From the NCBI GenBank assembly GCA_007376295.1, contig VMGB01000001.1, positions 80,424 to 144,423 on the forward strand: a DNA stretch of 64,000 nucleotides, given 5' to 3'. Below the pieces are notes generated by a model. It was given only the letters and a program-made list of their open reading frames with translations. It made no database searches and was not told the DNA's origin. The first letter of the stretch is position 1; every line of letters starts with the position of its first letter. A program made the translations under genes and the position numbers. The DNA comes from Parcubacteria group bacterium Gr01-1014_13. Its GTDB lineage: Bacteria > Patescibacteriota > Patescibacteriia > Magasanikbacterales > GWA2-37-8. Below are positions 4,685 through 54,695 of the stretch, in pieces.

Positions 4685-4688
4685 GTAC

Positions 4689-5309: not shown

Positions 5310-5313
5310 AAAT

Positions 5314-6732: not shown

Positions 6733-6735
6733 AAA

Positions 6736-7497: not shown

Positions 7498-7623
7498 AAA
7501 AGTGGTAATTTTCAAGCAATCTTTTCTCTCACTATATACGAAAATAACTCAGACGTCAATGGTATGAGTTAAAACAAAAAAGAACGGACAAGACCGCTCT
7601 TCTTTGTATTTTTACACTAAAAA

Positions 7624-7905
7624 TTACATTTTGTGCTCTGTTCCACAATTGCATCCGCCAGGACCGCAATTGCAACCGCTGCCGCTGCCATCTTTGGAGC
7701 ACATCTTGCATTTGCCCATGCATAGCATCATAAGGGCTGATAAGCCTACCAAAATGTAGACTACTCTCTCTACCATTGGCCAGTTGCCCAATAGAGCATT
7801 TACCAGATTCCAGTTAAAAGCGCCTACTAAACCCCAGTTTAATGCTCCAACGAGCACCAATAGCCAGGACACTTTGTGTCCGTGACACATTTTTTTCATC
7901 ATCAT
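7624..7905 (-). CDS. DUF378-family small membrane protein with Cys-rich (metallothionein-like) C-terminal tail
   Basis: 'LLVLVGALNWGLVGAFNWNLVNALLG' is the DUF378 core. The tail 'CMGKCKMCSKDGSGSGCNCGPGGCNCGTEHKM' has 8 Cys in 30 residues. Confidence 0.55.
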   Translation of the reverse strand: MMMKKMCHGHKVSWLLVLVGALNWGLVGAFNWNLVNALLGNWPMVERVVYILVGLSALMMLCMGKCKMCSKDGSGSGCNCGPGGCNCGTEHKM

Positions 7906-7960
7906 AAATGATGGTTAAGAATAAAAAGGTATTATACCACGTTTTTGGGTAGATAGGTAC

Positions 7961-8329
7961 TTAAGCCTTTTTTTCGGGGATGAATTTGAGAGAGACAGAA
8001 TTTACACAGTGGCGGGTATTTTTTGGAGTATAGCCCTCGCCAGTAAAGACATGCCCCAGATGAGCGTCACAAGTATTACAAGTAATTTCGGTGCGCGAGC
8101 CATCAGCATCGGGCGTCTTTTTTACAGCGCCGGGAATTTCTTGATCAAAGCTGGGCCAGCCGCAACCAGAATGAAATTTACTCGTAGAAGTATAGAGCGG
8201 AGTATTACAACGGCGGCAAACATAAGTTCCGGGTACAAAAAAATCATCGTATTCACCGGTAAAAGGTCGTTCAGTACCTTTGTGAACAATTACTTTTTCT
8301 TCTTCGGGGGTTAGGGGATTAAGTTGCAT
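7961..8329 (-). CDS. msrB: peptide-methionine (R)-S-oxide reductase MsrB
   Basis: Two CxxC pairs ('CRRCNTPL', '[12 protein letters not shown]') and 'CGWPSF'. Start taken at internal Met (8329), abutting the upstream gene stop. Confidence 0.85.
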
Positions 8330-8334
8330 ATAAA

Positions 8335-9234
8335 TTATCTGGCTGTAACCAGTAATCGTAGTTTGTGTTTGAGCGCGCATTTCCAAGAGCAGAATGGTTC
8401 TCCTTTTTTGTTTAGACAATTTTCGCAACAGATAAAATGATCATGGCAGGTAGGGAGCAAACAATTTACAAAATTTTCATTTGCAGTGTGGCATTTACGG
8501 CAGCGGCCAACAATTTCATGTTCTCTTTCTGGGCTGCTAAAGGCCATAGTAACGCGGCCGTCAAATACATATAGCTTACCGGCAAAATCTTCATCCGGAT
8601 ATTTTTCCATATACGAAACAATGCCATTATGTAATTGGTAGACATCATTGAAACCATTTGTGACCAAAAATCCAGACGCTTTTTCACAGCGCACACCGCC
8701 GGTGCAAACGGTAACTACAGTTTTGTTTTTTAGATGTTCAAGTTTAGGTAAAATTTTTGGCAGATCACGGAAGTTTTTTAGCGGCGGTAAAATTGAATTT
8801 TTAAAAAATCCGACCGAGTGTTCGTAGTCATTGCGCATGTCGACAATATAAAATTCTTTGCCGCTATGAATCCAATCATGGAGATTTTCCGGAGATAAAT
8901 ATTTTCCCGTGGTAACGGCCGGATTTACATCCGCGTCCCCCAAATGCGCGCTCACAATTTCTGATCGCGCTTTTACGGATAATTTAGGGAAAGCATCGCC
9001 TGTACCAACGCTACGTTTGAAGTTCATATCGTTAAAACGCGGGTCGCTGGCAGTTTCGTCTATATATTTTTGGGTATTTCCCACTAAGCCCTCTACAGTT
9101 CCGTTTATGCCTTCGGGAGCGATAATAATACGGCCTTTCAAGCCTAATTTTTCACAAAGCAATCTTTGAGTACGACAAAATTCGCTGGGGTCAGCGATGT
9201 GGGTATATTTGTAATATAAAAGTATTTCGTGCAT
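8335..9234 (-). CDS. trhO: tRNA uridine(34) hydroxylase TrhO (rhodanese-domain protein YceA family)
   Basis: '[13 protein letters not shown]' N-motif, rhodanese active-site loop '[14 protein letters not shown]', C-terminal Cys cluster. Start set at '[10 protein letters not shown]' (9234). Confidence 0.8.
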
Positions 9235-9287
9235 ATATTTTTCTTCTGCACAAAGTCTACCACTTAAATCAAAAAATTTCAATACTT

Positions 9288-10076
9288 CTACGCTAACCTC
9301 CCAAACATTACGCCAACAACATAGGCGGCCGCGGCGGCAAAACCTCCAAGCAGGAGCATTTCCATGCCAGCGCGATACCATGGCTGGCGAGTAAAATATA
9401 TTTTTAGAGTACCTAGGATAAATAGGGTAATGCCGGTAAGTGAGCAGGCGAGAACAAATGTGTGGGCGGCAAAAAATGGAATAAATTTGGCAATCACATA
9501 AATTAAAACCGGAATAGCGCCAAAGAAAACAAACGAACCAAAAGTAACCAAGGCATTTTTTAATGGTGATTCAGGATTTTCTACCAATCCTAATTCTTCG
9601 ACCATCATAATATCTACCCACGGTTTTTCTATCTTCGACAAGGCATCAACAGCAATTTTTGCATCTTCCGGGGCGATGCCTTTTTCTATATAAAGTTCTA
9701 TCATCTCTTTTTTTTCTCCTTCGGGATAGTTTTGTACTTCCCAGGTTTCGCGCACTCTTTCGGCGGCAGCATATTCATTTTCTGCTTTGGTACTTAAATA
9801 ATCTCCAAAGGCCATAGAAATGCCGTCGGCGATAAGATTGGCAACACCCAAAATTAAAACTATGCTGGCCGATAAATTAGCGCCAGCCACACCGGCGACC
9901 ACAGCAAAGGTGGTGACAATACCATCCAGCCCGCCATAGACAAAACTTTTTAGGTATTGGCCGTGGCCGGTTTGGTGTTCTTCGGGCGCGCCGCCATTGT
10001 CGTGCGCTCTTCGGCTTGCCTCTGGGTCGTTGCGACGAAAGGCGCTGCGGGCTTTTTCTAAATTACGACTTATCAT
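9288..10076 (-). CDS. VIT1/CCC1-family Fe/Mn transporter
   Basis: 'GGLDGIVTTFAVVAGVAG' signature. Cytoplasmic N-domain followed by 5 TM helices. Confidence 0.7.
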   Translation of the reverse strand: MISRNLEKARSAFRRNDPEASRRAHDNGGAPEEHQTGHGQYLKSFVYGGLDGIVTTFAVVAGVAGANLSASIVLILGVANLIADGISMAFGDYLSTKAENEYAAAERVRETWEVQNYPEGEKKEMIELYIEKGIAPEDAKIAVDALSKIEKPWVDIMMVEELGLVENPESPLKNALVTFGSFVFFGAIPVLIYVIAKFIPFFAAHTFVLACSLTGITLFILGTLKIYFTRQPWYRAGMEMLLLGGFAAAAAYVVGVMFGRLA

Positions 10077-10087
10077 AACGTATAATT

Positions 10088-11221
10088 TTATTCAGTAACC
10101 TTGAGCGTGCCCCACTGGCCATTTATTTTGTGGCCTGGTTTGGAACAGTAATAGACAAAATCTCCCGTTTTGTCTGCGGTAAATTCAACTATCACTTCCT
10201 GATTCAGAGGCAGCTCTTCAGTAACCCTAAATTCATTAATTAAAAAATCGTGTATACCCAGGGTGTTGGTGATCTTAATTCTAACCCTATCTCCTTTTTT
10301 TACAACCATTTCCGGCAGGGAAAAAGCTGGTTTTTTGAGCGTCGGATCATAGTAAGCGGTCATGGTAAATTCTTTTACCGATTCGTTTGGGGAATTTTTT
10401 TTGGAAGTTTGGCTATCGCCCTTTAAATTTTTATTTAAGAAATCAACGGTTTTTTTCCAAGCATCTTTTGTTTCATCTGCCGCGTAGTTCATTCCTGAAG
10501 GATTGGCAAAAGCGTGTCCTACGCCTGGGTAGATATGAATTTCATTTGGCGTGCCAAGTTTGTCCAGGGCGGCATCAAATTGGTTTACACTTTCCATGCT
10601 TATAGACGTGTCTTTATCTCCAAATATGCCAAGCACCGGCCATTTGATGGCTTTAAGTTTTTCGGTGGTAGTGGCCAAGCGTCCATAGTAAATAATGGTG
10701 GCATCCATCTTTTCACCGGAAAGCGCTAGCAACAAAGATTGTCCGCCGCCGAAACACCAACCAATAGAAGCGATTTTAGTAACCCCCTGATCTTTTAGAT
10801 ATTTTACTGCCGCCTTCATATTTTTAGTGCCCACTTCTTGGCTAAAATTTGCTGTAAGCGCGCGGGCTTCTTCTTGAGTTTCTACGGATTTACCCAAAAG
10901 GTCTACAGCCAAAACCATGTATCCTTCTCGAGCAAGTTGTTTGGCCATATTGCGAATATTGTCGTTAAGTCCGCGATTCTCATGGATCATAACAATACCC
11001 GGATATTCTCCAGCTTTTTCCGGTCTGGCCAAAAATCCTTTGGCTTGTTCAAAGTAATTTACATCGCTTGTAACTACAGCGTAGCTTCCTTCGCCAGATA
11101 GCATTTCTGAATTTTTTATATTTTTATCTGCGGGAGTAGCGGCTTGTTTTGATTTTGACATAAACAAACCGGCTCCGATAACTAGTATGACGGCCAAAAG
11201 AGGGAATAATAATTTACGCAT
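10088..11221 (-). CDS. secreted dienelactone-hydrolase-family esterase fused to a C-terminal cupredoxin-like domain
   Basis: Signal peptide 'LLAVILVIGAGLF'. DLH motifs 'GIVMIHENRGL' and nucleophile elbow 'IGWCFGG'. C-terminal ~95 aa has a cupredoxin ligand pattern 'GIHDF...YYCSKPGHKINGQWG'. Confidence 0.6.
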   Translation of the reverse strand: MRKLLFPLLAVILVIGAGLFMSKSKQAATPADKNIKNSEMLSGEGSYAVVTSDVNYFEQAKGFLARPEKAGEYPGIVMIHENRGLNDNIRNMAKQLAREGYMVLAVDLLGKSVETQEEARALTANFSQEVGTKNMKAAVKYLKDQGVTKIASIGWCFGGGQSLLLALSGEKMDATIIYYGRLATTTEKLKAIKWPVLGIFGDKDTSISMESVNQFDAALDKLGTPNEIHIYPGVGHAFANPSGMNYAADETKDAWKKTVDFLNKNLKGDSQTSKKNSPNESVKEFTMTAYYDPTLKKPAFSLPEMVVKKGDRVRIKITNTLGIHDFLINEFRVTEELPLNQEVIVEFTADKTGDFVYYCSKPGHKINGQWGTLKVTE

Positions 11222-17605: not shown

Positions 17606-19345
17606 TTATTTAACCTTTGATCCAAATTTTTGTCCGGAATCATCGGACCGAAGTGCGTTGTTTAAAGGCGCGTGAGAGAGATTGAATTTTTTACCGATAA
17701 ATTCATCGGTTGCCGAAAATTGCAACGAATTTGTCAGTAGAATGTTTTGTCCTATTTGCGCAACTGAAGGAGTAACAGAAACTTCAAAGTATAAACCCGT
17801 CTGGCTATTGGCTGGCAAAGTATTGTATCTCCAAGAAATGGTTCGGTCGGCATTGTTGTAATCTAATTGCGGACCTATAGAGGTGCTTTGTTTGCCGGTG
17901 AATTCTACACCCACTGGCAAGGAGGTGCTAAAAGTAGCTTCGTTAATCGCATTGGTAGTGTTGGTAATTTTTACAAGAATCCAGTATTTAGTCGTCTTTC
18001 CAACTCGCGGAGGCAATGGCCCGCGGCCCAGCTGGTCGCCTTCGGCAGTGTAATAGCGGGTTTCAATATCAAAATCAACTTCGGTAGCCAGTGGTATACG
18101 GGCACGTGAGCCGTCCTGGCTAAACTGTTGACCCGGAGCTTCGCTGACATGGCCTTTTACTGCAGGATATATTTCTAAATTGATTTTTTCTGCCTCGGAT
18201 AAATTAAAACTTGGTAATAAATAAATTTTTACAGTAAATGTATCGGCGCTTCCTGGGTTGCCGTTGCTAAGCTGGGTTCTGGAACTGCTATCAAAAAATA
18301 TCCCAGTTGTTTCTACCTTTGCGCCATTTTCTCTGGCTGTCTTTTTCCAATCGACTACGCTTTGTAAATTTGAAGACAAGTGAAGGGTGATGTTTTGTAA
18401 TTTAAAATCGCTTTTGTTCTGCCATTTTATTTCTATAGGTAAAGCTTGGCCCGGTTCGGCATATCCAGAATTCTCTAACGATCTGGCGTTAGAAATTACT
18501 TGCGGAGCAAAGACGCGCAATTCTTTGGTGGCCGGGGCCTGCGGCACAACATGATTATTGATTATAACTTGTGGGGTGACGCTAAAGGTAAAACTTCCGG
18601 ATTTATTTGGCGTTACAAATTGTCCTTCAATAACCTTGCTGCTGCCAGCCGAAAGCAAGATATTTTTGGTTTCTTTCTCACTCATTACATCCGCATTCCA
18701 ATTATTGATAACGGATATATTATTTACTTCACGGTTGCTGGAATTGGTAAGAGTGTAAGTAAATTTAATATTGGCATTAGGCAAAGTGGATGTAGTCATG
18801 GTTAATTTGCCGGCCAAAACACTGTCAGGCATGCGCGAAACAAAAGAAGACAACTTTTGTTCCCGGCCGGGATTGTTTTCCGGTTCATACGATAAGTTGG
18901 CAATTAACAACTCTTCTTTATTTGGTTCGCTCCAAAACCAGCCGTAAATTTCCGCTTGGCCAGTAGCACCAGCCTTTATTTCTTTGATAGCCGGGAAGAT
19001 AAAGTCATCAGAGAAAGTGTCTTTTGAAGTTTTGCTTCGGTCGATTATGAAGCCCTCTGGCAAATGTAGGGCCAAAGATACGTTGTTTAATTTAAATTTA
19101 CTTTTATTTTTATATTTTATTGTCAGATAAACTTCTTGTCCGCTTTTTATCCGTTCATTGCCCAGAGACATTGATACATCAATCGAGGTTGTGAGGCTTG
19201 GTTTCCAAAGCCACAAAAACATTGTGCTGCCAAGCAGGATTAGGGAAAAAGCAAACAGAGCCAAATCAAAAATGAATAGTTTTTTGGCGTGTTGGTAGTT
19301 ATTATGGTACCGTTTGCGGTAGTGACCTTTTAAAAATTTGAGCAT
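17606..19345 (-). CDS. large membrane-anchored extracellular protein with repeated beta-rich (DUF11/CARDB-like) domains
   Basis: N-terminal TM anchor 'LFIFDLALFAFSLILLGSTMFLWLW'. Long Ser/Thr/Asn-rich extracellular region with internal repetition. Confidence 0.45.
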   Translation of the reverse strand: MLKFLKGHYRKRYHNNYQHAKKLFIFDLALFAFSLILLGSTMFLWLWKPSLTTSIDVSMSLGNERIKSGQEVYLTIKYKNKSKFKLNNVSLALHLPEGFIIDRSKTSKDTFSDDFIFPAIKEIKAGATGQAEIYGWFWSEPNKEELLIANLSYEPENNPGREQKLSSFVSRMPDSVLAGKLTMTTSTLPNANIKFTYTLTNSSNREVNNISVINNWNADVMSEKETKNILLSAGSSKVIEGQFVTPNKSGSFTFSVTPQVIINNHVVPQAPATKELRVFAPQVISNARSLENSGYAEPGQALPIEIKWQNKSDFKLQNITLHLSSNLQSVVDWKKTARENGAKVETTGIFFDSSSRTQLSNGNPGSADTFTVKIYLLPSFNLSEAEKINLEIYPAVKGHVSEAPGQQFSQDGSRARIPLATEVDFDIETRYYTAEGDQLGRGPLPPRVGKTTKYWILVKITNTTNAINEATFSTSLPVGVEFTGKQSTSIGPQLDYNNADRTISWRYNTLPANSQTGLYFEVSVTPSVAQIGQNILLTNSLQFSATDEFIGKKFNLSHAPLNNALRSDDSGQKFGSKVK

Positions 19346-19778: not shown

Positions 19779-19803
19779 TTTGTATACATTAGTGTATACA
19801 AAT
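19779..19803. promoter_or_regulatory. operator-like palindrome copy 1 (TTTGTATACAtTAGTGTATACAAAT, one central mismatch)
   Basis: First of three near-identical 25-26 bp inverted repeats. Abuts the HTH gene start. Confidence 0.55.
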
Positions 19804-19863: not shown

Positions 19864-19889
19864 ATTTGTATACACTAGTGTATACAAAT
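19864..19889. promoter_or_regulatory. operator-like perfect palindrome copy 2 (ATTTGTATACACTAGTGTATACAAAT)
   Basis: Perfect 26-bp palindrome, 85 bp from copy 1. Confidence 0.55.
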
Positions 19890-19945: not shown

Positions 19946-19971
19946 ATTTGTATACACTAGTGTATACAAAT
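19946..19971. promoter_or_regulatory. operator-like perfect palindrome copy 3 (ATTTGTATACACTAGTGTATACAAAT)
   Basis: Perfect 26-bp palindrome, 82 bp from copy 2. Confidence 0.55.
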
Positions 19972-20253: not shown

Positions 20254-20835
20254 ATGTCCAGAAGCAACTTCAACGAAAAACTCCTACTTTTAAAGCTTCG
20301 TACGACAGAAGATCCTGAAGCTTTCGCTAAGTTATATGATATCTATGCAAAACGTATCTATAGCTTTGTTTTTTTTAAAGTTTCAAATCGTGAGGAAGCA
20401 GAGGATATAACATCGGAAGTTTTTCTAAAAGCTTGGCGGTATATAAATGAGAAAAAGAAAATAGAAAGTTTTAGCGGTCTGCTTTATAGATTAGCGCGCA
20501 ATTGCGTGATCGATCTATACCGATCAAGATCAAAACAAAAAGAAACCTTGTCGATTGATACGGAAATAACGATAGAAATTGGCGATGCTGGAAAATGGAA
20601 AGAAGATTTGGGAGAAGAGATAGTGAATAAGCTGGAGATGCAAAAAATAGTGGGAGCCTTACAAAAAATGAAACAAGAATACAGAGAAGTGGTAACCCTG
20701 AGATATGTAGATGAATTGGAAGTAAGCGAGATTGCCGAAATTACCGGCAAAGGACATATAGCAGTCAGAGTAACTTTGCACCGGGGTTTAAAAAAACTTA
20801 AAGAACTATTAAAAGAACAGCCAGCGGTTGAATAA
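20254..20835 (+). CDS. ECF-type RNA polymerase sigma factor (sigma-70 regions 2 and 4)
   Basis: Region 2 'LYRLARNCVIDLYRSR'. Region 4 HTH 'EYREVVTLRYVDELEVSEIAEITGKGHIAVRVTLHRGLKKLKE'. Confidence 0.8.
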   Translation: MSRSNFNEKLLLLKLRTTEDPEAFAKLYDIYAKRIYSFVFFKVSNREEAEDITSEVFLKAWRYINEKKKIESFSGLLYRLARNCVIDLYRSRSKQKETLSIDTEITIEIGDAGKWKEDLGEEIVNKLEMQKIVGALQKMKQEYREVVTLRYVDELEVSEIAEITGKGHIAVRVTLHRGLKKLKELLKEQPAVE

Positions 20836-22395: not shown

Positions 22396-25300
22396 ATGAG
22401 CGATGTATTAAAATTCGGGAAGAAAGTCTTCACGTCCAGTGTCGTCGGCGCCACTATGTTGTGGTCTGTCGGCGTTTCTGCATTGTTGCCAGCTGTTGCT
22501 AACGCTGCAGTTTGCCCAGCAATGAGTTCAGGAGACATGGTAAAGGTATCTGGAAAACCAGCTATCTATTCTGTGAACAACTCAATGAAGATTCTATATT
22601 TCCCTTCAGGTGATGAATTCAAGAGTTGGACTAGCCTTTCAGCAACTGCCCCTAATCAGTATGCTTCCCAAGGTTATCTAACAATCACTCAAGATTGTTT
22701 CGATTCTTTATCAGTTCCTAGCACATACCCAGGTGGCGTAAACTTCCGCCCAGGTTCATACGTTGTCAAGAGACCTTCTTCTGATCAATTGTATGTTGTA
22801 TTGCCAGGCAACAGTCTAGCTAAAATTAGCTCAACTGATGCTAAAGCTTTATACGGAACTAACTACAAAGTAATGACTGTTGCCGATGCTTTCTGGCCTC
22901 ACTATGTAAATAGAGGAGCCGATGTTGCTGGTACAGTTCATGAAGGTATGTTGGTAAGTAATGACGGCAAAACTTGGTATGTAGATGCTGGTATGAAATT
23001 ACGAGAAGTAACAGCTGCAGGCATGACCGCAAACAGATTCAAAGCTGGTTGGGTTCACGCTGTTCCAGCTTCTTACTTAGCAGGCACTTCAGTTGGTGCT
23101 ATGCTTGATTCAATGGAATCTACTTTAACTAACAGAACTCAGGACGGAGCTGTGACTCCAGGTCCAGCCCCAGTTGGCGGAAACCTAACTGTTTCTTTGG
23201 CCGCTGATAATCCAGCTGCTGCCAATTTAGCAGATGGTTCTGCTTACAACAGTGTCTTAAAATTAAACTTAAGAGCTGGTTCAGCAGCCACTAATGTTAC
23301 AGGAATTACTTTGACTAAGACTGGTTTAATTGCTAATACCAATATAACCGGCGTTAGTGTTTGGGATGCTCAAGGCAATCGCCATGGCGATGTTATGAGT
23401 TCTTTAACTTCTGACAACAAGGTAACTGTAAGTTTCGGCTCTTACCCAATCATGGTAGCCGCAGGTGGTTCTGAATCATTACTAGTTGCAGTAAATATCG
23501 CCACCACTGCTAACTCCGGTTTAGTTGGCTTCAATGTGAATGCTGCTACCGATATTATGAGTAATGGCACTGCTGGCGGATCATTCCCAATCGTTGGTAA
23601 CCAGATGTCTATCATTGACGGCAATGCCTCTTTGGGCGCTTTCACCGTTACTGGTCAGTCCGTTGGTGGTTCTGCCAACCAACCAGCTAGCACTGCTGCT
23701 GGAAACTTAAATATTGGTGACTTACAAAAAGAAGTTGCTAAATTTAGATTTACCGAAACTAGCGGCAATGAAGATCTGACAGTTTCCCGGTTGACTTTCT
23801 ATGCAGCTGGTACTATCCAAGACAGCGACTTAGCTAACATCAGCGTATACGGACCGGATGGCGCTTTGCTTGGCAATGGCGGTAGTTTGAGTAACCGTTA
23901 TGTAACGGTTAAATTCGCTACTTCATACGTTGTGCCAAAGAGCACCAACCGAGATCTCTCTGTAAAAGTTGACGTTATAAACGGTTCAACCCGCAATTTC
24001 AATATCCACTTACAGAGCGACTACGACATGCTAGTAAAAGGCAATACTACCGGATTCTTCATCTTACCTACCAGCTTTACCGATACAACCAGCACTAGCG
24101 CTTGGTTTAATATGGGTTCTGGTACCTTGACTGTAAACAAGACCCCAAGTTCTCCAGCTGGAAACATTTCCTCTGGCGCATCAAATGTTGTTTTGGCTAG
24201 ATTCGATGTTAAAGCCACTGGCGAAAACATGGAATTACGCAAGATGGGTCTTGGTATCAACAGAGGTAATGGATCTGTGTTAGCCTTAACAGGTAATGTT
24301 ACTGTTCGTGACGCTTCAGACGGAACTGTATATTTGACAGTTGCTGCGTCAACTGCGGATCTATACACTCCAGCCGCAGCTCAGCGTAACTTATCAAGCT
24401 ACATTAACCTTACTGCTAATCAGACAAAGACATTGGAAGTAATTGGTAGTGTTAACACAACCGCAACTTCTGGAAACAGCTATATAGTAGGAGTTGGTAA
24501 TTTCTATGCGAAGAGAGCTTCGACATTAGACTTTGCTGATAACCTGCCAAACAGCACTAACACCAGCACAGCTGCCAACCAATTAACAGTTAGCGCAACT
24601 TCGCTAACCTGCAACAGAGACACAGCTATGGGTAGCGTTACCCGCGCTGCTGGTACTACTTCAGTTATCGCTCAGTACATTTGTACAGCCGGTACCTCCG
24701 AAGATGTTCGCTTGAGCAATACCAATATTAACTTTGGTCCAGTTTCAGGCGGAACTGCTGCTAGCACATTCCAAAACATGTCGCTTTGGAACGGATCTAC
24801 TCAATTGGGTACAACTATAAGCACCGTTGCTTCCTCTTCTAACTCTTATAGTTTTGATCTTACTGTTCCAAAGAACGGAACTGTAATGTTACAGGTAAAG
24901 GCGTTGATTGTTTCCGGAGCAACCGCAGTAGTAACCACTTCCTTTGGAAGTTATAACTTTAACGGTAAAGATAGTGGAACTGCCGGAACTGGTAACCCAG
25001 TAGCCGGTCAGCAAGTCACTGTTGGATCCGGTAACTTATATATTACTGCTGTATCCGATGCTACAACCATTGGAAAGATTTACGGTCCTTCTCAAGCAAG
25101 TGTACAGTTAGGCAAGTGGAAATTCACCGCTACTAACGATGACATTACTTTGAAAAAGTTGACCTTAACCTCTCGCAATGCGCACGTTACCGGCGGAGAC
25201 CAGACTGCGTTGGGTACATTTGGCACACTATCCTTATACGATGGTTCAACCAAATTAGCTGATGCTAGTTATGTCACCGGTGACGTAGTATTTACTGGCT

Positions 25301-26157
25301 TTAGCGCTTCCATCCCAATGGATAGTTATAAAGTCTTTACACTAAAAGGCGGTACAACTGCTTCTGGTGTAATCTCCAGTAACACCACTACGGTCTTCGT
25401 TGTGAAGAGCGACAGCAATACAGATATGGAAGCCATGTCTTCCGCTGGTTCATTGTTGGGAACTGCAGATATTTCTGCAACTTCCTCTACAAGCAACAGT
25501 CTTGCTGAAACCAGATTTGCCACATCCACCCAGTACTTCTTCCATGATGCTTACCCAACTATGGTAGCCACATCACTTGGAAGCTCGCTAGGTTTGGATA
25601 CTACAGCTCAAATCCTTAAATTCACCATTACCAATTCCGGTACTCGTGACTTAAGATTTGGTTCAAGTACAATCGCAGTCAGCGTATCTGGCTTGCAAGG
25701 CAATTCAGGTCCTACCGCATCTAGTGGTACGATCAGAGGCTTCAGATTGTATGAAGAGGGCGCCCCTGGTACATTGGGAACACGTCTCGCCGGTGGTACT
25801 GCTAACGATTCCGCTGATGTGGTAATCGCTTCAAGCACTGCCAGCCCTTCAAACGTAACCTTTGACCCGACCAATGATGTAAACAGCCTGTTGGATAACT
25901 TTGTTATCTCTCCAGGTTCTAGCAGAACATTGATCGTTACTGCCGACACCTCCAATATGGGTACTACAAAGACAGCGGGAACTTCTGTGACCGTGTCTGC
26001 GAAGATCTCCGGTTCAACCGGTTGGAGCGGCACAGCTTGGAACACAGGTAACTTGTTCTACTACTACACTGCAGTAGGTGGTACTGAGAACACAGTTCCT
26101 TTCACTCACTCAGATTCTTACGATGTACAAGGTTCAACAATGAGCCGGTCCTTCTAA
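22396..26157 (+). CDS. giant (1253 aa) secreted cell-surface protein, Cys-free, Thr/Ser/Gly/Ala/Asn-rich with repeated Ig-like segments (S-layer/adhesin-like)
   Basis: Signal peptide 'VVGATMLWSVGVSALLPAVANA'. Extreme compositional bias, no Cys, recurring 'LT..T..GT' beta-strand-like repeats. Strong terminator follows. Confidence 0.6.
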   Translation: MSDVLKFGKKVFTSSVVGATMLWSVGVSALLPAVANAAVCPAMSSGDMVKVSGKPAIYSVNNSMKILYFPSGDEFKSWTSLSATAPNQYASQGYLTITQDCFDSLSVPSTYPGGVNFRPGSYVVKRPSSDQLYVVLPGNSLAKISSTDAKALYGTNYKVMTVADAFWPHYVNRGADVAGTVHEGMLVSNDGKTWYVDAGMKLREVTAAGMTANRFKAGWVHAVPASYLAGTSVGAMLDSMESTLTNRTQDGAVTPGPAPVGGNLTVSLAADNPAAANLADGSAYNSVLKLNLRAGSAATNVTGITLTKTGLIANTNITGVSVWDAQGNRHGDVMSSLTSDNKVTVSFGSYPIMVAAGGSESLLVAVNIATTANSGLVGFNVNAATDIMSNGTAGGSFPIVGNQMSIIDGNASLGAFTVTGQSVGGSANQPASTAAGNLNIGDLQKEVAKFRFTETSGNEDLTVSRLTFYAAGTIQDSDLANISVYGPDGALLGNGGSLSNRYVTVKFATSYVVPKSTNRDLSVKVDVINGSTRNFNIHLQSDYDMLVKGNTTGFFILPTSFTDTTSTSAWFNMGSGTLTVNKTPSSPAGNISSGASNVVLARFDVKATGENMELRKMGLGINRGNGSVLALTGNVTVRDASDGTVYLTVAASTADLYTPAAAQRNLSSYINLTANQTKTLEVIGSVNTTATSGNSYIVGVGNFYAKRASTLDFADNLPNSTNTSTAANQLTVSATSLTCNRDTAMGSVTRAAGTTSVIAQYICTAGTSEDVRLSNTNINFGPVSGGTAASTFQNMSLWNGSTQLGTTISTVASSSNSYSFDLTVPKNGTVMLQVKALIVSGATAVVTTSFGSYNFNGKDSGTAGTGNPVAGQQVTVGSGNLYITAVSDATTIGKIYGPSQASVQLGKWKFTATNDDITLKKLTLTSRNAHVTGGDQTALGTFGTLSLYDGSTKLADASYVTGDVVFTGFSASIPMDSYKVFTLKGGTTASGVISSNTTTVFVVKSDSNTDMEAMSSAGSLLGTADISATSSTSNSLAETRFATSTQYFFHDAYPTMVATSLGSSLGLDTTAQILKFTITNSGTRDLRFGSSTIAVSVSGLQGNSGPTASSGTIRGFRLYEEGAPGTLGTRLAGGTANDSADVVIASSTASPSNVTFDPTNDVNSLLDNFVISPGSSRTLIVTADTSNMGTTKTAGTSVTVSAKISGSTGWSGTAWNTGNLFYYYTAVGGTENTVPFTHSDSYDVQGSTMSRSF

Positions 26158-28149: not shown

Positions 28150-28221
28150 GGCCCCATCGTCTATCAGTTAGGACACGACCTTCTCAAGGTTGAGAGACGG
28201 GTGCGATTCCCGTTGGGGCTA
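28150..28221 (+). tRNA. tRNA-Glu-like (anticodon CUC), atypical T-loop
   Basis: Cloverleaf: acceptor GGCCCCA/TGGGGCT (G-U at 1:72), D-stem GTCT/GGAC, anticodon stem CGACC/GGTTG with loop UU-CUC-AA, T-stem ACGGG/CCCGT. T-loop is TGCGATT, with G where the universal U55 is expected. CCA not encoded. Confidence 0.5.
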
Positions 28222-28235
28222 CTAAGACTGCTGAT

Positions 28236-28544
28236 ATGGAAAAAATGTTAGAAAATTTAAAGTTTTTTGGCACCTACATAGGCATGCCAGATACTGATCC
28301 GAGACTTATACTCGCCAGACTCATTCATATGGCGCTAGGTTTTGTCGGTATTGTCTTGTTGCTCATGATTCTATCCAGCGGTTTTTCATTTATGGTTTCA
28401 GGCGGAGATGAAGAAAAAACTGCCAGCGCTAAAAGAACTTTAATCAATGCCATTATTGGCGTAATAATTATCCTCTCTGCTTATAGCATCGTAAACTTTG
28501 TGATGAATGGTCTGACTGCGGCCACTACCACTTCCGGGGTTTAA
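28236..28544 (+). CDS. small two-TM membrane protein, possibly pilin-like (VirB2/TrbC-like topology)
   Basis: Two hydrophobic helices separated by a short charged loop 'SGGDEEKTASAKRT'. Thr-rich C-terminal tail. Weak topology-only call. Confidence 0.35.
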   Translation: MEKMLENLKFFGTYIGMPDTDPRLILARLIHMALGFVGIVLLLMILSSGFSFMVSGGDEEKTASAKRTLINAIIGVIIILSAYSIVNFVMNGLTAATTTSGV

Positions 28545-28644
28545 ACTTTAAATCAGCTTCGGCTGATTTTTTGTTTGTTTTAAATTTTGACAACTAATGA
28601 AAAAATTGTTACGTTAAGTTTGGCAAATTTACAAAAACAAGGAG

Positions 28645-29526
28645 TTGCCAATGCGGTTCACTGTCGGCAGGGTGGGAAGCCTGATCAGTGGTCGTTATGA
28701 ACTCAAGGAACATATTTATACAAGCAACATGAGTAGCGTGCTCAAAGCTTGGGATTATAAAGAAGATCGCTTCGTGGTTGTCAAGATTTCTACAGATACT
28801 GTCCAATACTCCAATTTGGTAGAGTGTCTAAAGCGTGAAGCCGGGGCGCTTAGCAGGATTGATCATCCACGCGTTGTACGTGTATTCGATTCTGGAAATA
28901 TTGGACCGTCACATTTTATAGTGTTGGAATATATACACGGCACAAATCTCGCTAATTATATTCACAGACACGGTCGTTTGTTTCTGGATGCTGCCATTTC
29001 GGTAGGCATAGACCTGCTTGAAGGTTTAGAAGCTATACATAAAGAGGGGATCGTTCACCGCGATCTCAAACCAGAGAATTTGATTACTACTCGTATCGGA
29101 GTCAAAATTATCGATCTCGGTTTGGCTGTATCTACGCCCGCAGCAGAGCAAAAGATGGATCCATTAGATAGTCCTGGAATGGTAAGTGGCACACCCCCAT
29201 ATCTTTCGCCTGAGCAAGCTCAGGGATCCGAAGATTTGGACGCTCGGTCCGATCTGTATGCTTGCGGCGTTATATTATATGAACTGTTAACTGGAGCTCT
29301 TCCTTTTTATAACTTTAAAAAGGACGGGCAGATATTTAAATATTGGCAAGGACGATTGCGTCCGTTTTGGGAAGTATCGCCTGCTGTAGACGTTCCAGAC
29401 AAAGTCCAAGCCGTTGTTTGGAAGGCGCTGGCAGTTGACCCCAAGGATCGTTATCAAACTGCCGAAGAAATGCGGATGGCTTTGCTAGAGGTAATGGAAA
29501 AATATGTCACAATTCCGTTGCCGTGA
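28645..29526 (+). CDS. Ser/Thr protein kinase (catalytic domain only)
   Basis: Catalytic loop 'HRDLKPENL', 'DLGLA' (DFG-equivalent), 'GTPPYLSPE' (APE motif). No TM or PASTA domain. Confidence 0.8.
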   Translation: MPMRFTVGRVGSLISGRYELKEHIYTSNMSSVLKAWDYKEDRFVVVKISTDTVQYSNLVECLKREAGALSRIDHPRVVRVFDSGNIGPSHFIVLEYIHGTNLANYIHRHGRLFLDAAISVGIDLLEGLEAIHKEGIVHRDLKPENLITTRIGVKIIDLGLAVSTPAAEQKMDPLDSPGMVSGTPPYLSPEQAQGSEDLDARSDLYACGVILYELLTGALPFYNFKKDGQIFKYWQGRLRPFWEVSPAVDVPDKVQAVVWKALAVDPKDRYQTAEEMRMALLEVMEKYVTIPLP

Positions 29527-29571
29527 AAAAGTGCACCGTCCCGCAATTGCGTGGGCGGTTTTTATTTTAGT

Positions 29572-29601
29572 TTGACAGTATTTAAAAATACGTGCTATAG
29601 T
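29572..29601 (+). promoter_or_regulatory. putative sigma70-type promoter (TTGACA-18-TATAGT) for the MntR/DtxR operon
   Basis: Consensus -35 and near-consensus -10, directly upstream of the operator palindrome. Confidence 0.45.
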
Positions 29602-29604
29602 TAT

Positions 29605-29620
29605 GTTCGTATATACGAAC
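29605..29620. promoter_or_regulatory. perfect 16-bp palindrome GTTCGTATATACGAAC; candidate MntR/DtxR operator
   Basis: Sits between the -10 and the ATG (29629) of the metalloregulator gene, the classic autoregulatory operator position. Confidence 0.5.
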
Positions 29621-29628
29621 AAATTAGT

Positions 29629-30039
29629 ATGTCACGAATTACTCCTACTCGAGAAGATTATCTCCGGGCCATATACCGTTTTTCCCAAAAAGATACCCGC
29701 GTTCGTATTATTGACATCGCGCGTAATTTGAATTTGGCTCGTTCCACAGTTTCCGAAAGAGTTCAAGATTTAAAGAATGCAAATTTTATAAAATCCGGCC
29801 AAAATGAAGAGGGGATTGTCCTGAGCAAAAAAGGATTGCTATTGGCCCGGCAACTCACCTACAAACACCGTTTGATTGAAGTTTTTCTCCACAAAGTTTT
29901 GCATATGGATGCCAAAAAAGTCCATGCGGAAGCGCATAAACTAGAACATGCGTTTTCCGATGAAGTGATTGCTCGTTTGGCCAAGTTTCTAGGCAACCCT
30001 AAAAAAGATCCGCACGGAGAAAAAATTACTAAAGTTTAA
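29629..30039 (+). CDS. DtxR/MntR-family metal-dependent transcriptional repressor
   Basis: 'TREDYLRAIYRF' N-terminal helix and 'ARNLNLARSTVSERVQDL' HTH, a classic DtxR-family N-domain. Start set at ATG 29629. Confidence 0.8.
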   Translation: MSRITPTREDYLRAIYRFSQKDTRVRIIDIARNLNLARSTVSERVQDLKNANFIKSGQNEEGIVLSKKGLLLARQLTYKHRLIEVFLHKVLHMDAKKVHAEAHKLEHAFSDEVIARLAKFLGNPKKDPHGEKITKV

Positions 30040-30053
30040 ATTTTTTAAAAAAT

Positions 30054-31088
30054 ATGTCTCAGAAAAAATTTATCACACTTATTACTGTAATATTGGTTGC
30101 CGTGGCAGCAGTAGTTTTTGGCGGCTATAAATTTAACAAGAAAAATAGCGGTCACGACTATGTTAAATTACATCAGGAGGCCCAAAAAAATATAGGTCCT
30201 ACCGGACAGTATCAGACCGATGATTTTGATCCTACGGAATTTTTGACAACCTGGAATTTCAACAATCTTCCTGAAAAAGAGCGCGCCAAATTTTATAAAG
30301 AAACAGCTCTTGCCGACGGGACTTTATTGCGTGAGTATAATTTTTTTATAGAAGACAAAGAAATTGAAGTTGCTCCCGGAGTCTTTTTTCCGGCCTGGGC
30401 ATATAATGGCCAGGTACCTGGCCCAACTATCCGCGCCACCGAAGGTGATACGGTTAAAATAACCCTTATAAATGGCGGTTCAAAACCTCATTCGGCTCAT
30501 TTTCACGGTTTTCATTCCGCAGAAATGGATGGTTCGGCTCCCGAGGACATGGTTTTACCGGGAGAAAATTTTACCTATGAATTCAAAGCGGGTCCATTTG
30601 GCACTCATGTTTATCATTGTCACAGTTATCCAGTTTCCCAACATATAACGAAGGGGTTATATGGTGCTTATATTGTGGATCCAAAAAATGATACTAGACC
30701 AAAAGCGGACAAGGAATTAGTAATGGTGATGAATGGTTTTGATACTGATTTTGATGGCGCTAACGATATTTATGCTGTCAATACTATGGCCTTTGCTTAT
30801 AACTATAAACCAATAATGGTTAAGAAAGGCGAGTTAGTGCGTATTCATTTGAGTAATATGCTTCAGTTTGATCTGGTTAACTCATTTCATTTGCACGCCA
30901 ATTTTTTTAACGAATATAAGACCGGTACAAGTTTAAAACCCGATAATTTTACGGACACAATTACTTTGGGGCCGGCGGAAAGATCGGTTTTAGATGTCAG
31001 ATTTAGAGAACCGGGCATGTTTATGTTCCACGCTCATGTGCAGGAATTTGCTGAGTTGGGTTGGACCGGTATGTTTATGGTGGAATAA
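30054..31088 (+). CDS. two-domain cupredoxin-fold multicopper-oxidase/NirK-like protein, membrane-anchored
   Basis: N-terminal TM. Cu-ligand motifs 'HSAHFHGFH' (HxH), 'HVYHCHSYPVSQH' (HCH + distal His) and 'FHAHV'. Confidence 0.6.
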   Translation: MSQKKFITLITVILVAVAAVVFGGYKFNKKNSGHDYVKLHQEAQKNIGPTGQYQTDDFDPTEFLTTWNFNNLPEKERAKFYKETALADGTLLREYNFFIEDKEIEVAPGVFFPAWAYNGQVPGPTIRATEGDTVKITLINGGSKPHSAHFHGFHSAEMDGSAPEDMVLPGENFTYEFKAGPFGTHVYHCHSYPVSQHITKGLYGAYIVDPKNDTRPKADKELVMVMNGFDTDFDGANDIYAVNTMAFAYNYKPIMVKKGELVRIHLSNMLQFDLVNSFHLHANFFNEYKTGTSLKPDNFTDTITLGPAERSVLDVRFREPGMFMFHAHVQEFAELGWTGMFMVE

Positions 31089-31107
31089 ATATTTTAAAAC
31101 TATTATT

Positions 31108-32316
31108 ATGTCTCAAATATCAGAAACAAATAGGGGGTTAAAAACATGGATTAGTTTTTTGTTGCCGCTCATTTTGTTAGCGGGGCTTCTCTGGGGTTTT
31201 ATAAAATACGGTCCTCTGGGAGTATTTAAAGCAGAATTTCCTCCTGTCGAAAAACTTGTTATCCAGAGAGTGAATTTCATGCCCGAACGTATTGATCTTG
31301 AAGTTTTTAATGATGGGCCGGAATCTGTGACTGTTGCCCAGTTGGTAGTCAATGAAGTTATCTGGCAATTCAAAATGCAGCCTGATAATAATACCTTGAA
31401 GCCTTTGGAAGGCGGAGTAGTATCATTGGCTTATCCTTGGACTGAAGGCGATCCGATTGCTTTTACATTAATATCCAGCGATGGTGTTACTTTTGGAAAA
31501 GAAGTTGATGTAGCTTTTTTGACCCCAACCATTGATGCAACATACTTACGAACCTTTATTCTGCTTGGTTTGTATGTCGGTGTTGTTCCGGTGCTACTCG
31601 GTCTGCTTTGGTTTCCGTTTTTACGCAGGCTTAAAGGCAAAGGATATCTGTTTTTGCTATCTTTGACCATCGGTCTTCTGTTATTTTTAGGATTTTCTAC
31701 TTTGGCTGAATCTATAGAACTAATTGGCGAGTTGCCAAGCGCCTTTAATGGCGTCGGACTGCTTGTTATTGGATTTGTTTCAGCAATTTTAATTCTTGGC
31801 GCAGTGACTTATAAAACAGAATTTAGTTTGGCTAATAAGAGTGATCATTCCAAAGCTTTAATATGGTCATACTTAATAGCTTTGGGTATTGGATTGCATA
31901 ATCTGGGCGAGGGTCTGGCTATAGGTAGCGCTTATACTTTAGGTGAGATTGCTTTAGGATCTACTCTGGTTATTGGTTTTATGGTGCATAATGTTACCGA
32001 AGGGGTGGCGATTATTTCTCCGCTGACTCATGGTGAAGTTAAAATAAAAAGATTTTTTAAACATCTTTTGTTAATGGGACTACTAGCTGGCGCGCCGACT
32101 ATTCTAGGAAGTTTAATTGGTGGGTTCGCTTACTCTCCTGTTTATGGCGTCCTCTTTTTGGCTATTGGCGCCGGAGCTATCTTTGATGTTACTTTTGATA
32201 TTCTTCATCATATGGCCAAAGGACGTTGGAATTCTTTGTTTACCACCACCAATGTCTTTGGGTTTTTAGCAGGCTTATTTCTTATGTACGTAACTGGATT
32301 TCTGGTTTTGGGCTAA
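31108..32316 (+). CDS. ZIP-family (ZupT-like) divalent metal permease with N-terminal extracytoplasmic domain
   Basis: 'LGIGLHNLGEGLAIGSAY' and 'FMVHNVTEGVAII' are ZIP signature His/Glu helices. Start set at ATG 31108. Confidence 0.7.
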   Translation: MSQISETNRGLKTWISFLLPLILLAGLLWGFIKYGPLGVFKAEFPPVEKLVIQRVNFMPERIDLEVFNDGPESVTVAQLVVNEVIWQFKMQPDNNTLKPLEGGVVSLAYPWTEGDPIAFTLISSDGVTFGKEVDVAFLTPTIDATYLRTFILLGLYVGVVPVLLGLLWFPFLRRLKGKGYLFLLSLTIGLLLFLGFSTLAESIELIGELPSAFNGVGLLVIGFVSAILILGAVTYKTEFSLANKSDHSKALIWSYLIALGIGLHNLGEGLAIGSAYTLGEIALGSTLVIGFMVHNVTEGVAIISPLTHGEVKIKRFFKHLLLMGLLAGAPTILGSLIGGFAYSPVYGVLFLAIGAGAIFDVTFDILHHMAKGRWNSLFTTTNVFGFLAGLFLMYVTGFLVLG

Positions 32317-32401
32317 TTGACAAGCAGCTTCTTCTATAGTACTATCTTCATGCCAAGACAAAAATTGGAGTAGAGCCTTTTGGTTCTAAAGAAAGGAAAC
32401 G

Positions 32402-33352
32402 ATGACCAGATCTTTCAAACAGCAGTGTGAGAAGCCGTGGGCAATGGGTAAGTATGTCTGTGTCGGGCTCGACCCGGACTTCAACAGGCTTCCCACCCAT
32501 CTAAAAGACCTCCGTAGTCCAGAGAAATGGATCTTTGATTTTTTGAAAGCGATTGTTGATTCGACGGTAAAAGTCGCCGCGGCTTTCAAACCAAACTATG
32601 CTTTTTTCGAGAAGTATGGTGATCTGGGTGTTAAAGTCTACGTGATGATTTGTCAATATATCAAGGCATTTCATAAGGATGTTGTCCTTATCTGTGATTC
32701 CAAGCGCGGGGATATCGGTGATACGAACGTCGGTTCGGCAGACTTCTTTTTCGAGCGGTGCAATGCTGATGCGGTTACGGTCAATGGTTATCTCGGGCCA
32801 GAAGCTCTGGAGCCGTTCCTCAATCGTGAGGATAAAGGTGTGTTCATTTTGTGTCGTACTTCTAACTCCGGATCTGGAGAGCTCCAAAATCTACAGGTTC
32901 AGGTTTCTGCAGAAGAAGCCGAGATGTTTCGTCTGCCTTCCGCACTACCTTCCCAAGAGATGACCTGGGAAGAATCTCAGAGGTACCATAAGGAGAAAAA
33001 GCTTACTTATCATATGCCACTTTACCAGTACGTGGCCGCTCGGGTCAGCCATTCTTGGAACAAGAAAAACAACAATTGCGGTTTGGTAACTGGCGCTACC
33101 TACGCAGAAGACATCTACAATGTTCGTCATGTTGCGCCCGATTTACCTCTTCTTATCCCAGGTATCGGCAAGCAGGGTGGCGATCTCGAAAAGTCGGTGA
33201 GGGCGGCGAGCAGTCGATTTTTCGTCAATTCATCGAGCGCTATTCTGTATGCGTCACAGGGCGAAGATTTTGCCGAAGCAGCTTTGGCCAAGACCTTTGA
33301 ACTGGATAGCCAAATCCGCGCTCTGGTAGAGCAACAGCGCTGGGAGTTTTAA
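32402..33352 (+). CDS. pyrF: orotidine-5'-phosphate decarboxylase, type 2
   Basis: 'KYVCVGLDPD' and 'FKPNYAFFEKYG', then 'DSKRGDIGDT' (Lys-Asp active-site region). Length fits type-2 enzymes. Confidence 0.6.
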   Translation: MTRSFKQQCEKPWAMGKYVCVGLDPDFNRLPTHLKDLRSPEKWIFDFLKAIVDSTVKVAAAFKPNYAFFEKYGDLGVKVYVMICQYIKAFHKDVVLICDSKRGDIGDTNVGSADFFFERCNADAVTVNGYLGPEALEPFLNREDKGVFILCRTSNSGSGELQNLQVQVSAEEAEMFRLPSALPSQEMTWEESQRYHKEKKLTYHMPLYQYVAARVSHSWNKKNNNCGLVTGATYAEDIYNVRHVAPDLPLLIPGIGKQGGDLEKSVRAASSRFFVNSSSAILYASQGEDFAEAALAKTFELDSQIRALVEQQRWEF

Positions 33353-54632: not shown

Positions 54633-54695
54633 TAAGGTCCCGGGTATAATTGACTACCATCTATATAGATGGTAGTCTTTTGTTTAGGAGGAAGT

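Follow-up and report, generated by a model that had tools for sequence, protein, structure and literature searches.

Textbook coupling of an oxidase to a permease is known for iron, and with FTR1-type permeases only. In the yeast Fet3p-Ftr1p system, as in EfeUOB and FtrABCD of bacteria, the pairing of a multicopper or cupredoxin oxidase with a membrane permease is obligatory, and the pair is induced on metal shortage. A different pairing has been described in ammonia-oxidizing archaea, where the oxidase MCO1 lies beside a ZIP-type “zinc/iron permease.” The two are treated as a unit, and an uptake route running from oxidase to permease has been proposed, with copper as the substrate (Reyes et al. 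2020, PMC7785015; table in PMC5817080). Here, we describe a locus in a 64,000-nt stretch of the genome of Parcubacteria group bacterium Gr01-1014_13 (contig VMGB01000001.1, positions 80,424 to 144,423; the whole stretch is referred to below as the window) that encodes a DtxR/MntR-family regulator, a two-domain multicopper oxidase, and a ZIP permease, in that order. The best explanation of the region is that it is an autoregulated, metal-repressed three-gene operon and one copy of a mobile cassette carried by bacteria of the candidate phyla radiation (CPR), by DPANN archaea, and by many other bacteria.

How does this locus compare with the systems already described? Like MCO1, its oxidase has two domains, three types of copper center, and a leucine in the axial position, and it is encoded next to a ZIP. 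A primer for the Nitrososphaera viennensis permease encodes IHNTTEG, so that HNxTEG is common to that protein and to the window ZIP (HNVTEG); beyond this, the two were compared by description. There are also differences. The archaeal pair has no reported regulator, the metal proposed there is copper and not manganese or iron, the archaeal lineage is described as restricted to Thaumarchaeota, and the sole Nitrososphaera homolog that we retrieved (40% identity) has no ZIP neighbor. An initial annotation of the window, made from the sequence, had called the arrangement not a textbook bacterial one. Unusual it is, but it is not unique, given MCO1 and its ZIP (PMC7785015, PMC5817080). The iron systems differ in that their permeases are of the FTR1/OFeT type with REXXE motifs and their oxidases have three domains; here a ZIP takes the place of such a permease, the oxidase is a two-domain protein, probably trimeric, and the sensor belongs to the manganese type.

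The regulatory side of the locus resembles instead the manganese uptake operons (MntH, MntABC, SloABC) governed by MntR, SloR, ScaR, or TroR, with which it shares a repressor with Asp/His/Glu ligands and a palindrome that overlaps the promoter. Its targets likewise appear to be uptake genes, and many copies of the cassette include an Nramp gene. One ligand differs, being Glu in MntR and SloR and His in the cassette regulators of CPR and DPANN. To our knowledge, neither a multicopper oxidase nor an ectodomain-bearing ZIP belongs to any regulon of MntR, SloR, ScaR, or TroR.

The features of the operon are listed in Table 1. A terminator-like hairpin closes the upstream Ser/Thr-kinase gene and forms the 5′ boundary. 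The promoter named in the initial annotation, TTGACA-18-TATAGT, could be confirmed in coordinates read from the sequence; with 11/12 matches, it is the best sigma-70-like site between positions 28000 and 34000. The three genes are indeed co-directional and tightly spaced, with 14 nt between the regulator and oxidase genes and 19 nt between the oxidase and ZIP genes, and neither gap shows a promoter-like or terminator-like site. Separate transcription of the ZIP gene, which would undo the operon, therefore finds no support, all the more since the two genes adjoin or overlap in 28 of 29 loci (see below). The next gene (32402-33352), which is orotidine monophosphate (OMP)-decarboxylase-like and unrelated to the cassette, has a promoter-like site of its own. 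Neither it nor the kinase gene is conserved beside the cassette in any of the related loci.

Table 1. Features of the three-gene cassette and its boundaries (window coordinates)
Feature	Coordinates	Strand	Description
Terminator-like hairpin and T-run	29540..29555	+	Stem of 5 pairs, then CGGTTTTTAT
Sigma-70-type promoter	29572..29601	+	-35 TTGACA at 29572-77, 18-nt spacer, TG at 29593-94, -10 TATAGT at 29596-601
Operator (putative)	29604..29621	.	Perfect 18-bp palindrome TGTTCGTATATACGAACA, core GTTCG-N6-CGAAC
DtxR/MntR-family regulator gene	29629..30039	+	136 aa; Pfam PF01325 and PF02742
Two-domain multicopper oxidase gene	30054..31088	+	344 aa; Pfam PF07732 and PF07731
ZIP permease gene	31108..32316	+	402 aa; N-terminal extension 31108..31554, ZIP core 31555..32316
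ZIP N-terminal extension	31108..31554	+	Extra transmembrane helix at residues 14-32; beta-sandwich ectodomain at about residues 33-145
ZIP core	31555..32316	+	8 transmembrane helices; motifs HNLGEG (residue 264) and HNVTEG (residue 294)
Promoter-like site	32317..32345	+	TTGACA-17-TACTAT; precedes the next gene; 3′ boundary of the cassette

The putative operator is larger than first noted. The perfect palindrome reported as 16 bp (29605-29620) is the core of one of 18 bp, which begins 3 nt past the -10 element, spans the expected transcription start, and stops 8 nt before the ATG of the regulator gene. Since the box covers the -10 and start region, repression by occlusion and autoregulation are implied. 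Is the palindrome meaningful? On its own, an 18-bp palindrome is weak evidence, because the window holds four perfect ones where 0.28 are expected; its meaning comes from its position at the promoter and from its conservation in other genomes. Allowing up to 3 mismatches, the window contains no second copy, and a relaxed search of the window for GTTCG-N6-CGAAC gave a single, chance-level extra match at 63365. The core is present in 4 of 32 loci searched (L001, which is the same DNA as the window, L002, L003, and L010), always adjoining or overlapping the -10 element before the regulator gene. In the Saccharibacteria (L002, 4319-34), Taylorbacteria (L003, 3857-72), and Patescibacteria (L010, 4313-28) loci, it abuts or overlaps a promoter of the form TTGACA-17/18-(-10) upstream of the orthologous regulator gene. 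A Woesearchaeota contig fetched after that search (L039) has AAGTTCGCATATACGAACTT at the equivalent place. Further boxes, looked for to define a regulon, were absent from the window; the matching promoter position carries one in four genomes besides this one. In other copies from DPANN and bacteria, a 20-bp palindrome of related sequence, AAGTTAGG-N4-CCTAACTT or something close to it, takes that position, and a palindrome search of the intergenic regions of alphaproteobacteria, Deinococcus, and Rubrobacter gave no clear box. Two of the loci (L010, 4329-4490; L002, 4340-4470) have about 130 to 150 nt of extra, partly GC-rich sequence between the operator and the regulator start codon, a stretch that is not found in the window or in L003.

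How widespread is the cassette? Relatives of the oxidase were found at 31 loci when one genome per species was scanned. Sequence downstream of the oxidase gene is available for 29 of these, and in all but one (28/29) the next gene encodes a ZIP with the N-terminal extension; the exception is the Nitrososphaera locus mentioned above (L032), whose oxidase is the most distant homolog. The gap between the two genes is mostly -34 to +40 nt, stop and start codons often overlap, and the pairwise distances of the oxidases and of the ZIPs rise together (r = 0.87 over 528 pairs). Searching from the ZIP side turned up three metagenomic contigs with the oxidase gene upstream. Upstream sequence was sufficient to look for a regulator in 26 loci, and in 22 of them a DtxR-family gene adjoins the oxidase gene, either co-directionally or divergently. 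The initial annotation had suggested an oxidase-coupled metal uptake route under an Fe/Mn-type repressor, and this conserved linkage strongly backs it; the coupling itself is what we infer from the linkage. Fixed adjacency, with translational coupling likely, is also a feature that would suit iron uptake in the manner of Fet3p and Ftr1p, in which the oxidase would be a ferroxidase handing Fe3+ directly to the ZIP and the repressor would sense Fe2+.

The carriers are diverse. They include CPR lineages (Saccharibacteria, Taylorbacteria, Gracilibacteria, Peregrinibacteria, Peribacteria, and Paceibacterota), Woesearchaeota and Nanoarchaeia, and Gemmatimonadales, Krumholzibacteriia, Actinomycetes, Anaerolineae, Spirochaetes, Bacteroidota, and Armatimonadota. 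Overall, the cassette occurs in CPR and DPANN, in no fewer than eight further bacterial phyla, and on many plasmids. Plasmid records that encode the oxidase number 131, and in all six that were inspected a ZIP gene follows it. Bacterial and archaeal copies (CPR and DPANN) are about 65% identical, which argues for recent transfer between the domains. In the literature, we found no description of the cassette in CPR, DPANN, or plasmids, nor of its manganese-type regulator, Nramp partner, or ectodomain, and a paper on Drosophila Mco4 reports no oxidase-ZIP partnership. As far as these searches go, the pairing appears to have been noted before only in ammonia-oxidizing archaea.

Two side observations concern the cassette and its surroundings. 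The ZIP P0199 has the oxidase gene directly upstream in L041 (4281-6170), and in L042 (96-2272) there is only a 300-nt gap between the regulator and ZIP genes; L042, lacking the oxidase gene, is either a deletion variant or an assembly artifact. In the window (28150-29526 and 29700-32400), a tRNA-Glu(CTC) gene (28150-28222) is followed by a type IV secretion system (T4SS)-pilin-like gene (28236-28544), the Ser/Thr-kinase gene, and the cassette, and the GC content of the cassette is 0.37 to 0.41 versus 0.42 to 0.50 in the flanks. This is weakly compatible with insertion beside the tRNA gene.

Which metal does the repressor sense? The first gene encodes a short protein made up of a winged-helix DNA-binding domain and a helical metal-binding and dimerization domain, without the SH3-like third domain. 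Its membership in the DtxR/MntR family, as first proposed, is secure, since both domains score above their cut-offs (PF01325 Fe_dep_repress, 38.1 bits against 26; PF02742 Fe_dep_repr_C, 89.1 bits against 27). It aligns end to end with SloR, ScaR, and IdeR. Among solved structures, those nearest to it are of the manganese sensors SloR (E = 3e-25) and ScaR, alongside 6O5C and 8PVT. The predicted metal ligands, mapped on SloR, are D10, H80, E84, H99, H103, E106, H107, D127, and H129, corresponding to D7, H76, E80, H95, E99, E102, H103, C123, and H125 of that protein. The regulator reaches no NCBIfam MntR or DtxR equivalog cut-off (68.6 versus 138 bits for NF003025, 57.8 versus 153 for NF008273, and 71 versus 350 for NF047407, all MntR models) and therefore represents a distinct subfamily and not an ortholog of MntR from B. 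subtilis or E. coli.

The iron sensors DtxR and IdeR have Met10 and Cys102 where the manganese sensors MntR, SloR, and ScaR have Asp and Glu. Among the 27 cassette regulators compared, the residue at the DtxR Met10/MntR Asp8 position is Asp in every one, and that at the DtxR Cys102/MntR Glu99 position is His or Glu; the iron-type Met and Cys occur in none, and the window regulator has Asp and His. At the second position, His is characteristic of the short regulators of CPR and DPANN (131 to 139 aa) and Glu of the long regulators of other phyla (about 225 to 240 aa). The alphaproteobacterial regulators, which the NCBI annotation pipeline names MntR, carry Asp, Glu, His, Glu, Glu, and His at six positions that we take to be the MntR ligand set. 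Judging by these residues, the sensor appears to be of the manganese type rather than the iron type, so that of the “Fe/Mn-type repressor” first suggested, the manganese half is the one favored. Because the regulators all follow the Asp/His/Glu pattern and none has Met/Cys, Mn2+ is, on balance, favored as the signal and co-repressor.

The same count (0/27) speaks against Fet3p-like iron uptake, for which the repressor would have to sense Fe2+. The regulator is also hard to reconcile with copper acquisition or self-metallation, in which the oxidase would convert Cu+ to Cu2+ for import by the ZIP, or the ZIP would supply the copper that loads the oxidase. Its family and its ligands are of the manganese/iron type, and we know of no DtxR-family copper sensor. 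Nevertheless, copper acquisition is the function proposed for ammonia-oxidizing archaea, in which expression of both MCO1 and its neighboring permease increases modestly when copper is limiting (PMC7785015, PMC7819960).

The oxidase is a two-domain, type C multicopper oxidase (PF07732 Cu-oxidase_3 at residues 104-212, PF07731 Cu-oxidase_2 at residues 231-343) with its type-1 (T1) copper site in domain 1. All 11 copper ligands are present, in the motifs HSAHFH, HCH, H197, HLH, and HAH. Across 157 homologs, the T1 ligands H146, C189, and H197 are invariant, and the trinuclear-cluster ligands H149, H151, H188, H190, H279, H281, H326, and H328 are invariant or nearly so. The HxH, HCH-x-H, and HxH sets described in the initial annotation are thus complete, and a nonfunctional cupredoxin finds no support. 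The axial leucine noted earlier was also found: L202 aligns with the axial Met of PDB chain 9CCK, and the homologs divide at this position into 142 with Leu, 8 with Met, and 7 with His. Such a three-coordinate T1 site is a point in favor of the Fet3p-like reading, as Fet3p likewise lacks an axial Met. Two noncanonical histidines, H154 and H185 (window 30513-30515 and 30606-30608), are invariant in the 157 homologs as well and could form a substrate-metal site near the type-1 copper.

Could the protein be a copper nitrite reductase of the NirK type, with an unrelated transporter adjoining it? The description “multicopper-oxidase/NirK-like” invites the question, no named model scores higher than NCBIfam Cu_nitrite_red (E = 3.5e-30), and the fold is matched by many NirK structures. 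That score comes from domain 1 only and falls far below the cut-off of the model (TIGR02376, 105.5 against 296.3 bits). By motif spacing, and not by an alignment to NirK, the position of the catalytic Asp, which in NirK accompanies a type-2 site of three His, is taken by His149, which together with H188, H190, H279, H281, H326, and H328 completes a trinuclear cluster that NirK lacks. The nearest structural matches of the protein are oxidases, 3GDC at E = 4e-95 and 7RAB/7RAC at E = 9e-92; NirK enzymes, like the two-domain oxidases 2ZWN and 3G5W, are more distant. On its ligands and score, nitrite reductase was rejected at the sequence level, and we assign it a negligible chance. The protein is a two-domain, four-copper oxidase, and “NirK-like” is misleading.

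Fold and ligand layout are shared with a set of type C enzymes, namely 3GDC, MhMCO of Marinithermus hydrothermalis (7RAB/7RAC), the metagenomic laccase 2ZWN, and the Nitrosomonas blue copper oxidase 3G5W. MhMCO is reported to be a dodecamer of four trimers with laccase activity in vitro; the predicted structure model of the window oxidase is a monomer. For none of these four did the searchable literature yield a physiological role or a partner protein. They differ from the window oxidase at the N terminus, where the window protein has a plain hydrophobic stretch instead of a twin-arginine signal. Hydropathy places a hydrophobic helix at residues 6-24, and a twin-arginine motif is absent. The “membrane-anchored” oxidase of the initial annotation keeps its helix, but the anchoring is a prediction, and a cleaved Sec signal is the alternative. 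Most homologs outside CPR have twin-arginine signals followed by His/Met-rich linkers, which makes cytoplasmic loading conceivable and is a point for copper acquisition or self-metallation; the oxidases of CPR and DPANN have no such signals, which is a point against it.

The third protein is a ZIP, with a large extracytoplasmic N-terminal domain, as first described: an extra helix and about 110 residues predicted to form a beta-sandwich precede the eight helices of the core. Profile scores are low for its family (Pfam Zip, 32.0 bits with a cut-off of 35.1; NCBIfam ZupT, 36.8 versus 252 bits, E = 2.5e-9). Residues 150-394 nevertheless align with all eight helices of BbZIP (5TSA), and the motifs HNLGEG and HNVTEG match its HNLPEG and QDVPEG; Glu240 of the second metal site of BbZIP is Ala here. 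The motifs presumably also resemble those of ZupT-type carriers of divalent cations. For a Fet3p-like hand-off, this is the wrong kind of permease, since ZIPs carry divalent cations and the ZIP sequence contains no REXXE motif of the type used for Fe3+.

What might the ectodomain do? Known ZIP structures have the N terminus outside, and with one extra helix, the sandwich should be extracellular. No His, Cys, or Met is conserved in it, an observation that also tells against copper acquisition. A beta-sandwich without conserved metal ligands would suit docking, and we infer that its role is docking or spacing and not metal binding. Its profile matched 744 representative clusters among 1.84 billion proteins, in almost all of which the domain occupies residues 30-160 of proteins of about 400 aa. 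Ten distant ectodomain-ZIP clusters were sampled, and they bore only Gemmatimonadota and Tectomicrobia names. Five apparent fusions with the ectodomain following the oxidase (P0310, P0259, P0258, P0382, and P0373) were considered as evidence for a complex and rejected, as they are garbled, high-GC, and frameshift-like. Separately, two giant proteins, P0249 (2998 aa) and P0343 (6901 aa), have 13 to 20 tandem domains matching the ectodomain profile, and the fold thus appears to serve also as a repeat in very large surface proteins.

The genes that accompany the cassette in other genomes bear on the metal. An Nramp gene lies directly downstream of the ZIP gene, on the same strand, in 11 CPR and DPANN loci (L002, L003, L007, L011, L014-L017, L025, L039, and L043). 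In Deinococcus, an Nramp gene is in a divergent operon that shares its promoter region with the regulator gene, and at the Woesearchaeota locus (L039), a gene for an Fe/Mn superoxide dismutase precedes the regulator gene at a distance of about 2 kb. Nramp proteins import Fe2+ and Mn2+, and in those 11 operons, a ferroxidase would deprive the importer of Fe2+ by oxidizing it. This is the third count against Fet3p-like uptake, after the ligands of the sensor and the type of permease. On the other side, besides the adjacency of the genes and the axial Leu, stand the wiring of the operon as a repressed uptake system and the likeness of the DPANN boxes to the iron box of DtxR and IdeR. Taking both sides together, we regard that reading as unlikely.

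An Nramp gene in the same operon is unexpected for copper acquisition too. That reading can draw on the copper-related neighbors of the cassette on several plasmids and in DPANN loci, which include CopZ, CopD, SCO, cupredoxin, and DsbD. Against it, a scan of about 30 open reading frames (ORFs) of the window found a hydrolase with a cupredoxin-like domain as the sole other copper-linked protein. With the regulator, the absence of twin-arginine signals in CPR and DPANN, and the ectodomain also against it, we consider copper acquisition decidedly unlikely. A small lipoprotein-like cupredoxin with a CuA-type C-x3-C-x3-H-x2-M motif is encoded in L011 (5960-6334), L013 (5960-6328), and L039 (6198-6566), lying between the oxidase and ZIP genes in Nanoarchaeia and after the ZIP gene in Woesearchaeota. 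Possibly it serves the oxidase as a partner for electrons or copper.

Plasmids also suggest resistance to copper or heavy metals, with the oxidase as a CueO-like detoxifier of Cu+ and the ZIP as a passenger or efflux route. The oxidase-ZIP pair is found in heavy-metal islands on plasmids of Rhodococcus, Peribacillus, Deinococcus, and Rubrobacter, beside P-type ATPases, CDF transporters, and CopD/CopZ, and the number of plasmid records with the oxidase (131) fits such a role. A box that covers the promoter and a repressor that is released on metal shortage follow the logic of uptake, though, and ZIPs as a family move metals into the cytoplasm. CPR and DPANN cassettes have no resistance neighbors and often have Nramp. 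We therefore think resistance quite improbable.

We consider the cassette likely to be a starvation-induced module for the uptake of divalent metal, and it is probable, with somewhat less assurance, that the oxidase and the ZIP act together in it. When metal is plentiful, a metal-loaded dimer of the repressor would sit on the box and block RNA polymerase; when metal is scarce, the three genes would be transcribed. The ZIP would then import a divalent cation, most likely Mn2+ and possibly Fe2+, in many genomes alongside the Nramp importer of the same operon. The oxidase would be held at the outer surface of the membrane, probably by docking to the ectodomain of the ZIP, and would use O2 to oxidize a redox-active metal at the mouth of the permease.

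Why would an uptake system oxidize metal at its own entrance? Mn2+ is not readily oxidized by such enzymes. Fe2+ and Cu+ would be converted to forms that the ZIP does not carry, so that uptake would be biased toward Mn2+ and Fenton damage limited. We hold this removal of competitors only tentatively, but prefer it to a Fet3p-like hand-off because Nramp would lose its substrate were iron the metal wanted. More speculative still, and somewhat doubtful, is the idea of an “oxidative gatekeeper,” in which an oxidase docked on the beta-sandwich of a promiscuous ZIP, in many genomes beside an Nramp, uses O2 to remove Fe2+ and Cu+ so that only redox-inert Mn2+ enters. If true, this would be a mechanism of selectivity described for no transporter, and MCO1 and its ZIP in archaea would serve manganese rather than copper homeostasis.

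Several observations weigh against this reading of the cassette. (i) The regulators of CPR and DPANN have His in place of Glu at the position that matters most for selectivity, and we know of no characterized regulator with a His there (His103 in the window protein), so that the assignment to Mn2+ is tentative. (ii) The DPANN box, AAGTTAGG-N4-CCTAACTT, resembles the classical iron box of DtxR and IdeR. (iii) Plasmid-borne pairs of Rhodococcus and Peribacillus have no regulator and lie among copper and heavy-metal resistance genes, and DPANN cassettes often add the small CuA-motif cupredoxin; both point toward copper. (iv) The window cassette has no Nramp, superoxide dismutase, or cupredoxin partner, and the missing Nramp is the one that counts here. 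(v) A single box in 64 kb leaves the regulon undefinable. (vi) The apparent oxidase-ectodomain fusions look like frameshift artifacts. (vii) An oxidase that needs O2 and four copper atoms per molecule is costly for such an organism.

The interest of the cassette lies, first, in the partner of the oxidase, a ZIP, since the selectivity and partners of that family in prokaryotes are poorly understood, and second, in a pairing conserved across both prokaryotic domains and many plasmids. It is also among the few recognizable metal-homeostasis systems in the tiny genomes of CPR and DPANN. The manganese-type sensors and the association with Nramp provide a testable alternative to the copper uptake idea for the archaeal MCO1 and ZIP. 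Because carriers such as Sinorhizobium, Sulfitobacter, Deinococcus, Rhodococcus, and Peribacillus can be cultured, the question is answerable by ordinary genetics.

Other parts of the window hold features of separate interest. A 1253-aa ORF (22396-26157) without a Pfam match lies downstream of genes for an extracytoplasmic function (ECF)-type sigma factor and a DUF5667 protein. Another of the four perfect 18-bp palindromes, ACCATCTATATAGATGGT (54656-54673), lies in the 36-nt gap between a CTP synthase gene and an ORF without a Pfam match (54669-55817). On the minus strand, positions 3464-11221 encode a metal and redox cluster of SufS, SufD, SufB, SufC, MsrB, a rhodanese, and a VIT1-family Fe/Mn exporter (9288-10076); it also includes a dienelactone hydrolase fused to a Cupredoxin_1 domain (10088-11221), and this domain is 36 to 38% identical to the small cupredoxins of the DPANN cassettes. 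Finally, a palindrome of about 24 bp, TTTGTATACA(C/T)TAGTGTATACAAAT, occurs in three copies (19779-19803, 19865-19888, and 19947-19970), two of which are perfect 18-bp palindromes 82 nt apart. The copies lie in the long intergenic region downstream of a minus-strand gene (17606-19345), around the start of a small minus-strand helix-turn-helix-like ORF and upstream of the ECF-type sigma factor gene (20254-20835), and look like a separate autoregulated operator array.

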